Part shown: positions 59,291-61,412 of the stretch, one piece after another
Layout of the letters: each line of letters begins with the position of its first letter
How positions within the stretch are numbered: the stretch's first letter is position 1
Assembly: GCA_964354805.1 (NCBI GenBank)
Contig: CAYHBD010000035.1
Coordinates: 22,829 to 86,828 of the forward strand
Direction of reading: 5' to 3'
DNA: 64,000 bases
DNA from: an uncultured archaeon
GTDB lineage: Archaea; Iainarchaeota; Iainarchaeia; Iainarchaeales; GCA-2688035
The notes under the pieces: model-generated
The model's input: the letters and a program-made list of their open reading frames with translations, nothing else
Database searches by the model: none
Told to the model about the DNA's origin: nothing
Program-made: the position numbers and the translations under genes

Positions 59291-59468
59291 GCTCCCATGG
59301 TGTAGTGGATAGCATGCAAGCTTGCGGAAACCTTTCTTTTTAGAAAAAAGAAAGCCTTGGGAAAGAAAAAGATGCAATTGCGAAGCAATTGCATAGAATC
59401 TATAAAGAAAACCAGATAGAAATTATTGCAACAAGCTTGTGACCTGGGTTCGACTCCCAGTGGGAGCA
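59291..59468 (+). tRNA. tRNA-Arg(GCG) with 106-nt intron at 37/38 (59328-59433)
   Basis: Acceptor GCTCCCA/TGGGAGC; D-loop with GGA; anticodon stem CAAGC/GCTTG; anticodon GCG at 59324-59326; T arm CTGGG-TTCGACT-CCCAG; canonical BHB (TTGC/GCAA helix, bulges GG|A and CA|A). Confidence 0.93.
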
Positions 59469-59519
59469 TTAATTTCCTAACGAAAGAATTAAATTCAAAA
59501 TTGAATTATGTGATTACTT

Positions 59520-59933
59520 ATGGAAGAAAAAGAAATAGAAAAAATAATGCTGGACACATACAAAATTTGCGCCTTTGGCCTCTTCCTCGCCATAGCCTCT
59601 TTGGTTTCGTTTGGTTCTTTGTTGAACAAAGAAACTAACTTTAATGGATTCATGCTATCCGGGGGAATTTGGATACTTGCTCTTTTTTGGTTTGTTAGTT
59701 TCATCTCCGGAAACCCTTACGGGCAGGAATATCTTGTTTACGTAAGAATGCCAAGAAGGGCAGCAGGGCCCTATGATCATAACAATTTAAAGAAATTAAA
59801 AAAACAACTGACTGATGTTTATTTCAAAGAAAAAATTTGGAAAAAAACAGCGGTTTGGACAACAATACTAACATTGCTTCTTCTCATTGTTTGTTATGCA
59901 ATATTCTTACTGAAACCACACCTCCAATTCTGA
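59520..59933 (+). CDS. Small membrane protein
   Basis: 137 aa, 3 TM segments, AT-rich. Confidence 0.7.
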   Translation: MEEKEIEKIMLDTYKICAFGLFLAIASLVSFGSLLNKETNFNGFMLSGGIWILALFWFVSFISGNPYGQEYLVYVRMPRRAAGPYDHNNLKKLKKQLTDVYFKEKIWKKTAVWTTILTLLLLIVCYAIFLLKPHLQF

Positions 59934-60072
59934 ATTTTTTCTTAGGACTCTGCTTTTCTCGGCTTAAACCTTTGCACGCCTAATTCTTTTTTTATTGGTG
60001 CAAAGGATTTAATGCCTCCAAAATTCGCAAGACGTCCACGAAAAAAATTCATCATAAATTGGAGGTGATTCG

Positions 60073-60177
60073 ATGAGTTTTTCACAAAAACTTTCAGAAA
60101 CAAAGGGAAATCCATTCAGCACTGGCTTTTCCTTTGATGAATTGCTAAAGAACATGAAAGAAGATGGGTTCCCATGA
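60073..60177 (+). CDS. Putative 34-aa micro-ORF coupled to the LAGLIDADG gene
   Basis: GGAGGTGA RBS at 60061-60068; its stop overlaps the next start (ATGA at 60174-60177). Confidence 0.4.
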   Translation: MSFSQKLSETKGNPFSTGFSFDELLKNMKEDGFP

Positions 60178-61250
60178 GCAGCGGAACCCCGCTCTTCCAA
60201 AACCGCTTTAAAAGCAAAAAATCAAAGGTTAGTATGAGCGAAAGAAACATTGACTTGCTAAAGCTTCATGTGCCGGAAGAGGATACAAACATACGGCGCT
60301 GCCTGAGAGCATACACTATTCTGCCAAAGTTTTGCAAAGCGCCTGACAAAAGAAATCAAAATGCTGAAGTTGTCCTCAAAGAAATCTGGAAAATTAGAGA
60401 CAAAATGAAACAAAAGTTCGGAATAAAGTGGGGCTATGTATGGATGCACGCTATCCCTTACAAAATGTGCTACGCTTCTATTAAAGATTGGATGATTGGC
60501 AGAGCATCAGTTCCACTGGTTGCTATTGACTCACTTAGAAAAGTTGGCTTTGAAGAAGAAGCAGATTTAACATTGGAAAAAGCAGAATATGTTTCAAGCA
60601 CAACACAGGAAATTGTTAGAATTCCAAAGAAGTTGGACACTGACATTTTTTACCTCTGCGGATTAATTCTTGGTGACGGCTGCCTTCCCACACCAACCAA
60701 AGACCTGAGCGGCTTTTCTATAGTCAGCGGAAAAGAAGGGTTTTTGGACAGGCATATACGCCCAATCATTGAAGAAAATTTTGAAACTATTTGCTCTCCA
60801 ACCAGATACTACAACCACGGAGGAGATACTTGGAGCATTGAAAAGAGAAGCAAAGCTTTACACAGATTCTTCACAAAAATTTTTGGTTTGCCAAGTGGTA
60901 AAAAAAGCGAAAAAGCGCACATTCCGGAAATTGTAAAGAAAGCTACCGATAAAGAAAAAGCAGCGTTTTTGTCTGGCCTCATTGACAGCGATATTGGAAA
61001 ACATGGAAGCGGGATGGGGTGCACTTTCAGAAGCAAGAAAATTGTTGAAGACTTAATTGAATTGCTTGCTGAATTAGGGATAAGTGCAAAAAGTTATGGG
61101 GTTTACTACAAGAATGGAAAATACGAACAAAACGATTTTACAATCCTAAAATCTCAAATCAAAAGTTTAAAAGCTCTTCTCTCGGAAAATTATTTACCAA
61201 AAAGAGAAGACCGATTAAGAACAATTTATGAACGCGCGGGGATCGGATAG
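60174..61250 (+). CDS. Free-standing two-motif LAGLIDADG homing-endonuclease-like protein
   Basis: 'YLCGLILGDG' and 'AAFLSGLIDSDIG', 'FGLPSGKKS..AHIPE', 'LLAELGI'; last 15 nt overlap tRNA-Leu. Confidence 0.85.
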   Translation: MSSGTPLFQNRFKSKKSKVSMSERNIDLLKLHVPEEDTNIRRCLRAYTILPKFCKAPDKRNQNAEVVLKEIWKIRDKMKQKFGIKWGYVWMHAIPYKMCYASIKDWMIGRASVPLVAIDSLRKVGFEEEADLTLEKAEYVSSTTQEIVRIPKKLDTDIFYLCGLILGDGCLPTPTKDLSGFSIVSGKEGFLDRHIRPIIEENFETICSPTRYYNHGGDTWSIEKRSKALHRFFTKIFGLPSGKKSEKAHIPEIVKKATDKEKAAFLSGLIDSDIGKHGSGMGCTFRSKKIVEDLIELLAELGISAKSYGVYYKNGKYEQNDFTILKSQIKSLKALLSENYLPKREDRLRTIYERAGIG

Positions 61251-61412
61251 TAGCAATTCCGCCAGGTTCAGGAAGCCTTTCTTTCAAAAAGAAAGCCTTG
61301 GGAAAGAAATTTTTCCCTGTTTTCGCCAGCCTTTGTTAAAGGCTGTGGGAAAGAAAGACTGGAAAAGCCTGGTGCCTTAGTGGCTTCGGGGGTGCAAGTC
61401 CTCCTCCCCGCA
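61236..61412 (+). tRNA. tRNA-Leu(CAG) with ~94-nt intron at 37/38 (~61273-61366)
   Basis: Acceptor GCGGGGA/TCCCCGC plus A73; anticodon stem CCAGG/CCTGG; CAG at 61269-61271; long variable arm; T arm GGGGG-TGCAAGT-CCTCC; relaxed BHB, so the exact junction is uncertain by about 1 nt. Confidence 0.88.

Follow-up and report, generated by a model that had tools for sequence, protein, structure and literature searches.

A dispersed, putatively triplex-folding repeat at the 5' splice sites of tRNA introns in Iainarchaeota

REP and BIME sequences are bacterial elements moved by RAYT nucleases of the Y1 HUH type. Another assemblage of bacterial repeats, BoxC/PIT/TM-ECO (Holder et al. 2015, PMC4666352), consists of intrastrand triplex repeats for which neither a function nor a means of dispersal is clear. 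Archaeal tRNA introns are 11-129 nt long, with medians mostly in the range of 12-25 nt, and although the first-pass annotation of the DNA analyzed here held that long introns usually contain C/D guide RNAs, such guides are documented in that source for tRNA-Trp only (PMC4090602). Whole-intron copying between tRNA genes has been proposed for Thermoproteales (Fujishima et al. 2010, summarized in PMC4033280). The origin, growth and movement of archaeal tRNA introns are an open question, with few observed intermediates. Here we describe a family of dispersed repeats, one copy of which opens each of the introns of the tRNA-Arg(GCG) and tRNA-Leu(CAG) genes in a 64,000-nt stretch of the genome of an uncultured member of Iainarchaeota (hereinafter, the window; assembly GCA_964354805.1, contig CAYHBD010000035.1, positions 22,829 to 86,828). 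We consider it rather probable that this repeat is a non-coding DNA element of Iainarchaeota that spreads at the DNA level, inserting at the 5' splice sites of existing tRNA introns; such insertion would explain the unusually long tRNA introns in these archaea.

The window is G000:C35:22829-86828 in our numbering, where G000 is the 1.38-Mb assembly (44% GC), and a window position is the contig position minus 22828. The tRNA-Arg(GCG) gene (59291-59468, + strand) consists of a 5' exon covering tRNA positions 1-37 (59291..59327), a 106-nt intron at the canonical position 37/38 (59328..59433) and a 3' exon (59434..59468). The tRNA-Leu(CAG) gene (61236-61412, + strand) is organized in the same way, with a 5' exon (61236..61272), a 94-nt intron at 37/38 (61273..61366) and a 3' exon (61367..61412). 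In each case, a bulge-helix-bulge is recognizable at the exon-intron junctions, with a central helix of 4/4 pairs in Arg and 3/4 in Leu (A35.G mismatch) and a 2-bp h' helix in both. Given that the products spliced in silico have good ARAGORN scores (124.1 for Arg and 109.7 for Leu), that the assembly yielded no other gene for either anticodon, and that EndA and RtcB are both encoded in the genome, it is unlikely that these tRNAs are pseudogenes; furthermore, intronless orthologues occur in relatives, and removal of the intron restores a normal tRNA. Both introns appear to be ordinary EndA/RtcB-type tRNA introns, with a copy of the repeat as their 5' part. Neither contains a box C (with 0 or 1 mismatch allowed) or a box D, as already noticed in the first-pass annotation, and an Rfam scan of the window gave no match. 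Such long introns cause standard tools to overlook these tRNAs: with default settings, neither ARAGORN nor Rfam detected any tRNA in the window, ARAGORN at -ps85 returned noise only, and the ARAGORN intron option was required. In the tRNA-Leu(CAG) gene (61236-61412), the D loop is without its usual GG, and position 55 of the T loop is G (TGCAAGT); the tRNA-Leu(TAG) gene of G000 carries the identical pair of changes, which suggests covariation rather than decay.

The repeat unit is ~40 nt long. It starts with a 5-nt flank; a T-rich arm and the A-rich arm complementary to it then enclose a variable inner stem-loop, and a linker, 8 nt long in most copies, connects the A-rich arm to an A-rich tail. 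The unit is usually trailed by one or more small hairpin modules. The copy in the Arg intron (59328..59370, + strand), delineated from the sequence and the family statistics, is composed of the flank (59328-32), the pyrimidine arm (59333-41), the loop, the purine arm (59345-53, A5 G A3), the linker (59354-61) and the mirror tail (59362-70, A3 G A5). The copy at the Leu 5' splice site (61273..61309, + strand) has a 7-bp arm, an 8-nt linker and a mirror tail. The first-pass annotation gave the starts of both copies exactly and called the repeat a palindrome, which describes the hairpin arms and overlooks the mirror-image third tract. It also correctly described a further hairpin in each intron. 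The Arg hairpin, with a GAA loop (59372..59394, + strand), has exact matches of 19-22 nt at no fewer than six further genomic sites. The Leu hairpin, with a GTT loop followed by a GGG/A-rich tail (61327..61356, + strand), has a 26-nt exact match elsewhere and, together with its tail, resembles a truncated second repeat unit. The GCGAAGC loop sequence does recur at 20781 as originally noted; taken alone, this 7-mer is at background frequency (226 vs 208-235), in contrast to the longer second hairpin, which is truly recurrent. In tRNA-Arg(CCG) of another genome (L202:2695-2946, G008), the intron has a 60-nt hairpin inside the repeat linker.

The third tract is conserved as a mirror image of the purine arm. 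Among the 116 copies with an internal G in the arm, the tail G occupies the mirror position in 109, compared with a mean of 51 and a maximum of 68 in 2000 permutations; this placement holds for 28 of 30 copies in G000 alone and for 100 of 107 distinct types. The mirror fit beats the direct repeat for 77 of the 83 asymmetric arms and is never worse, and the length of the second A run covaries between arm and tail (rho 0.75). Windows with the class II triplex order, that is, a pyrimidine tract, a complementary purine tract and a mirror purine tract forming at least 6 triplets, number 102, as opposed to 0-1 in Markov controls. The ITxF search rule specifies loops of 1-6 nt; in the repeat, the first and last G of the 8-nt linker are mirrored in 222 of 256 copies, so that a self-pairing turn of 6 nt remains. 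In 13-14 of the 14 recurrent repeat types, linker bases 5-3 are paired with flank bases 1-3; flank base 4 is usually mismatched, so that the 5-bp basal stem retains a mismatch. Slippage and fold-back copying yield direct or inverted repeats rather than mirror repeats; hence the covariation of the three tracts points to selection on a triple-helix structure. The loops of the second hairpins conform to R..A in 75 cases when read on the opposite strand vs 18 on the intron strand, the excess expected for GNA-type DNA loops, which are stable. Purine-motif triplexes do not form in RNA (PMC4666352), so that the third tract on the intron strand would matter only as DNA; the opposite strand could adopt a pyrimidine-motif triplex as DNA or RNA.

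Copies were identified with pattern and structure scripts because the third strand is beyond what a covariance model can describe. A 20-nt core has 3 matches in the window vs 0.04 in shuffled sequences, and a 14-nt core has 59 exact matches in the genome vs 0-1 in order-4 Markov simulations, numbers far above those for a motif occurring at a few sites at the rate of AT-rich background, so the repeat is not a chance pattern. Structural search yields about 115-135 copies in G000, a few of which are reverse-strand shadows or chance matches. All intergenic copies originally listed for the window are present on the + strand, with one start shifted from 2091 to 2090. The copy at 21019..21055 is 94% identical to the start of the Leu intron and ends 9 nt 5' of a start codon; it is among the few copies in which the tail is not mirrored. 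The copy at 29219..29260 belongs to a pure-A subtype with a GC-rich inner stem, and an additional copy starts at 29296; the variants at 20716..20753 and 2090..2130 have linkers of 10 nt and 9 nt, respectively. The core is found in 18 of the 22 genomes of this Iainarchaeota family, in up to 143 copies, and the copy number among relatives varies from 0 to over 140: no repeat was found in the clade of G007, G010 and G014, and G004 is nearly devoid of copies. A related pattern is patchily distributed in a sample of the phylum (56 of 151 genomes); the records containing the repeat are titled mostly Iainarchaeum or Iainarchaeota and, in a few cases, Aenigmarchaeota, Micrarchaeota or Nanoarchaeota. 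Viral contigs contained no exact match to the core pattern. The pattern was also detected in contigs titled bacterial (L034, L048, L077, L083, L103, L112), some of which carry archaeal-looking tRNA genes and may be misbinned. In G037, from another family, a 153-nt tRNA-His intron consists of four tandem copies of a short repeat variant (L205:665-891).

The positions of the copies relative to tRNA genes are strikingly constrained. In G000, 28 of the 46 tRNA genes contain introns, and the count of repeat-bearing introns proposed in the first-pass annotation shows that 17 of the 24 canonical introns that could be placed (three read by eye) open with the repeat. Across all loci, 50 of 82 canonical introns, an enriched sample, contain the repeat (median intron length 86 nt, maximum 263 nt), and in all 50 the T arm lies at an offset of 4-7, that is, flush with the 5' splice site, with none in antisense orientation. 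A reverse copy in an intron would place two long U runs in the pre-tRNA; such copies are probably either eliminated by selection or never made. Outside introns, 18 of the 26 downstream sense copies lie within -1..+2 of tRNA position 73, and 10 of the 14 upstream antisense copies lie within 6 nt of the tRNA 5' end. Thus, the fixed end of the repeat abuts tRNA boundaries on both strands: 37/38, the 3' end, the 5' end (reverse), the T-loop start (reverse) and the D loop. Ten copies are located within 2 nt of a stop codon. Between protein-coding genes, 29 sense and 31 antisense copies show no strand bias, according to our own calls of open reading frames (ORFs).

The tRNA-Tyr genes provide direct evidence of repeat entry, at the splice site, into introns that were already there. 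All 19 of these genes that were examined have an intron. The same intron type lacks the repeat in G000, G022, G013 and G011 and has it inserted at base 2-4 in G012, G001 and G016. The G012 intron differs from that of G022 by an 81-nt insert, with 107 of the 117 remaining aligned bases identical, and G001 has an 80-nt insert with a different repeat subtype; the comparison of orthologous introns suggested in the first-pass annotation thus recovers forms with and without an insert of ~80 nt among relatives. In the RpoB tree, the filled G001 and G012 group with the empty G000, and the filled G016 with the empty G022, G013 and G011, so the site was either filled more than once or emptied several times. 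Along similar lines, an imperfect 3' end, GGAAAA, is common to the Leu(CAG) introns that have the repeat (G000, G001, G012) and those that lack it (G008), which suggests that here, too, the repeat joined an older intron. By analogy with tRNA-Tyr, we infer that both introns in the window arose by repeat insertion, and for Leu, this is backed by the 3' end of the element-free orthologue. The earlier idea of tRNA introns as a neutral haven is supported by the empty and filled tRNA-Tyr introns, although the fixed position at the 5' splice site denotes an insertion hotspot rather than random landing.

Target duplications are the other signature of mobility. In 16 of 230 copies, a direct repeat of 13-28 nt abuts the fixed end and recurs behind the unit, compared with ~0.5 in swapped controls; after the tandem pieces are dropped, about 12 duplications are left, mostly at tRNA T or D loops. 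Eight of the duplications are reverse insertions at T-loop position 53/54, in six tRNA types, that copy the portion from the T-arm to the 3' end, so that the gene stays whole; these cassettes consist of the repeat and a GCGA-type hairpin (G000:C16:22976-23147; L200, L240, L244, L245, L033, L083, L124). Three further duplications span the tRNA 5' end up to the D loop. Another copy, at G000:C9:82647-82790, has a 28-nt target duplication that overlaps the stop codon at the end of a gene.

Dispersal, three-tract covariation, fixed-end insertion at tRNA boundaries, entry into older introns and target duplications are all observed. We propose that, most likely, a tRNA gene exposed as single-stranded DNA in the course of replication or repair folds, and that the strand being synthesized, or a cut end, moves over to a folded repeat copy, a process in which host enzymes or a nuclease would act. 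Copies at the intron 5' splice site would be spliced out and hence survive, those with target duplications would survive by restoring the tRNA gene, and repeated landing would result in ever longer introns.

Several observations weigh against this scheme. The intronic copies show no remnant of exon duplication (mean 4.66 vs 4.59 in the control) and so may have entered by another route, for example, gene conversion between tRNA genes. The strict placement of these copies at the 5' splice site coincides with the cut site of EndA, which an RNA route would also explain. Many loci were fetched by means of the repeat itself, which biases the intron sample. No mobilizing enzyme was identified among the Y1_Tnp and RVT_1 proteins, the two families that were searched, and in 23 genomes, which are incomplete and for 12 of which the Y1_Tnp loci were read, we found no Y1 transposase gene with repeat copies on its flanks. 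The intact Y1_Tnp loci resemble IS200/IS605 genes with their own ends and are never flanked by the repeat, and accordingly, we rejected Y1 transposases as the mobilizer. Two loci (L001:572-1015 and L002:1268-1786) encode an IS200/IS605-type TnpA but no TnpB; they have hairpin ends of their own and bear no relation to the repeat.

In addition to expanding introns, the repeat might create them, a possibility that we entertain only tentatively. A repeat placed at 37/38 of an intronless gene, together with a few bases completing the bulge-helix-bulge, would make a new intron, or else, a minimal intron would be copied between tRNA genes. The Arg(GCG) intron with the repeat is present in nine family members and absent in eight, and this patchy distribution, with neighbours within a genus differing, takes 5 or more changes on the RpoB tree. 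Among the Arg(GCG) genes of outgroups, 12 of 15 are intronless, and the remaining ones contain one triplex-type intron and two unrelated introns. The shortest introns, of 43-52 nt, hold about 10 nt in addition to the repeat, and there is close similarity between the Arg intron of G018 (49 nt) and the Val intron of G000 (48 nt). Furthermore, introns are scarce in repeat-poor members of the family, where intronless tRNAs number 39 (G010) and about 37 (G004), compared with 15-20 in repeat-rich members. However, tRNA-Tyr shows invasion of older introns, and introns without the repeat are patchy as well, with G000 and G016 differing in those of Met, Gln-TTG and Arg-TCG. Beyond the family, repeat load and intron load are linked weakly or not at all; G042 lacks strict copies but has 14 long tRNA matches, and its 26 intronless tRNAs are as many as in G065. 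Counts of changes cannot separate gain from loss, and it is not obvious where, in one-step insertion, the 4 target-specific bases of the central helix would come from. The association of the repeat family with intron expansion suggested in the first-pass annotation therefore holds, whereas a link to intron gain is tentative. It is conceivable, if doubtful, that triplex-folding non-coding DNA, which would be copied into folded tRNA genes with no dedicated transposase, also founds spliceable introns and is a single, still-active source of both gain and expansion.

An improbable alternative to spread at the DNA level is an RNA route, in which excised or ligated intron RNA, or an opposite-strand RNA capped by a U.A-U triple helix, would be reverse-transcribed and inserted. 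The fixed end does coincide with RNA cut sites (37/38, the 3' end and the 5' end), duplications of variable length, 13-28 nt, are typical of target-primed reverse transcription, and the order of tracts on the opposite strand, pyrimidine, pyrimidine, purine, is that of ENE/MALAT1-type RNA triplexes. Nevertheless, RVT_1 was found in none of the 23 genomes (61-93% complete), and no extragenic copy extends to the 3' end of an intron, the longest matches covering 67 of 106 nt for Arg and 74 of 94 nt for Leu. The even orientation of the intergenic copies (29 sense, 31 antisense) also speaks against this route, as do the T-loop 53/54 insertions, which are antisense, carry target duplications and lie at a site that is not a tRNA processing site. 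The proposal of the first-pass annotation that excised introns are the mobile form is thus not borne out, and classification of the repeat as a retroposon or a mobile intron RNA was rejected given the lack of RVT_1 in these genomes and of whole-unit copies. Finally, the repeat is highly unlikely to be a selected host signal (for example, a protein-binding, termination or processing structure at the ends of stable-RNA genes) that is spread by gene conversion alone: the three-tract covariation, which implies structural selection, the strong preference for tRNA gene ends and stop codons (the 10 copies within 2 nt), and the same geometry in another family (G046) would fit such a role, but the repeat was not found in the G007/G010/G014 clade and is nearly absent in G004, orthologous sites bear different subtypes or none, target duplications and tandem arrays point to mobility, and the related E. 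coli motif showed no promoter or terminator activity (PMC4666352).

The 1.77 kb of DNA that separates the two tRNA genes in the window (59469-61235) contains two ORFs. The first (59520..59933, + strand) encodes 137 aa with no Pfam match; the second (60174..61250, + strand) encodes a free-standing, 358-aa, two-motif LAGLIDADG endonuclease-like protein, which is a neighbour and not part of the repeat, and its last codons and stop lie in the 5' end and D arm of tRNA-Leu(CAG). In G001, G006, G007, G009, G010, G012 and G014, the spacing between Arg(GCG) and Leu(CAG) is only about 40 nt, and the Leu 5' half in the window differs from that in unlinked alleles. Homologues of the LAGLIDADG protein (31-61% identity) end in or at tRNA-Leu(CAG/TAG) in G008, G009, G010, G013 (twice), G014, G015, G017, G019 and G022. 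Introns are present in 8 of 11 linked tRNA-Leu genes vs 3 of 14 unlinked ones (Fisher p 0.017, with related genomes not being independent), and most introns of the linked genes are not the repeat. The LAGLIDADG gene is thus a system distinct from the repeat, although it may contribute to retention of the Leu intron, an arrangement that resembles collaborative homing. The tRNA-Leu(TAG) introns of 34-37 nt in L142, L211, L229, L230 and L233, which are alike across families and unrelated to the repeat, mostly adjoin a LAGLIDADG gene, and in G000, a second LAGLIDADG-like ORF (C18:232-1230) is located between tRNA-Lys(CTT) and tRNA-Phe, behind a copy of the repeat.

Some other tRNA genes of G000 are unusual as well. 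A tRNA-Ile with the UAU anticodon (C42:32258-32377, - strand) has a 48-nt repeat-free intron with a box C-like RTGATGA and no CTGA. Non-canonical or double introns are found in tRNA genes on the + strand (C30:27106-27280, C9:80936-81082, C18:1231-1338) and on the - strand (C45:30-159, C10:32806-32966); the genome nevertheless shows a single short EndA gene (about 170-200 aa).

Literature search returned no description of this repeat family, with thin coverage of subscription journals, so that the family apparently has not been described previously. Similarly to REP/BIME, which are defined in part in PMC4666352, it comprises short extragenic hairpins with a conserved stem mismatch, GNA-type loops and mosaic clusters of modules; unlike these elements, it has no repeat-flanked Y1 gene and combines a mirror third tract with long target duplications. 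The GTAG/CGTC tag was found in only 4 of 275 copies, within 10 nt upstream of the hairpin foot, the other, variable-hairpin end not having been tested; in the absence of the tag and a flanked Y1 gene, we rejected the REP assignment. To our knowledge, HUH peel-and-paste transposition makes no long target duplications. Neither does the repeat qualify as a miniature inverted-repeat transposable element (MITE), lacking terminal inverted repeats and having, in the duplication-bounded copies inspected by eye, one fixed end and one variable end; its duplications, variable at 13-28 nt and absent in most copies, contrast with the short, fixed-length ones of MITEs. The REP/MITE-like label originally attached to it is therefore abandoned. 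The eight copies that duplicate the T-arm to the 3' end and leave the gene whole are reminiscent of integrative elements that restore the tRNA 3' end (PMC3293823); the inserts, however, are only about 60-130 nt long, with no integrase, and the duplicated piece must be copied from the target because it matches each different host tRNA. With canonical archaeal introns (PMC4090602), the introns described here share the 37/38 position, the bulge-helix-bulge, and EndA and RtcB in the genome; they differ in length when the repeat is present (median 86 nt, up to 263 nt) and, in the window pair, in the lack of C/D boxes.

The transposed tRNA introns of Thermoproteales (Fujishima et al. 2010, summarized in PMC4033280) are comparable in that different tRNA genes contain alike introns and the intron load is high (28 of 46 genes here). 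The differences are that, in our case, only the 5' part of the intron is shared, the unit is abundant outside tRNA genes, empty and filled pairs show entry into older introns, and nearly all sites are canonical 37/38. The family offers datable intermediates in intron evolution, namely, empty and filled alleles, minimal introns that are nearly repeat-only, and fresh insertions, flanked by target duplications, at fixed tRNA positions. In structure, the closest counterparts are BoxC/PIT/TM-ECO, with the same class II layout (pyrimidine, loop, purine, loop, mirror purine), length of about 35-40 nt, tens of dispersed copies without strand bias between genes, no known transposase and variability among close relatives. 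TM-ECO is G/C-rich, has a 3-nt second loop and is always intergenic, and tRNA is not mentioned in PMC4666352. The Iainarchaeota repeat is archaeal and A/T-rich, its 8-nt linker pairs with itself, its 5-bp basal stem retains a mismatch, and it resides in tRNA introns and at tRNA ends, with target duplications; we did not assign it to BoxC/TM-ECO in view of its A/T-rich composition and its presence in tRNA introns rather than in intergenic regions only. For intrastrand triplex repeats in general, this family would provide a natural covariation proof of the third strand, together with a defined target.

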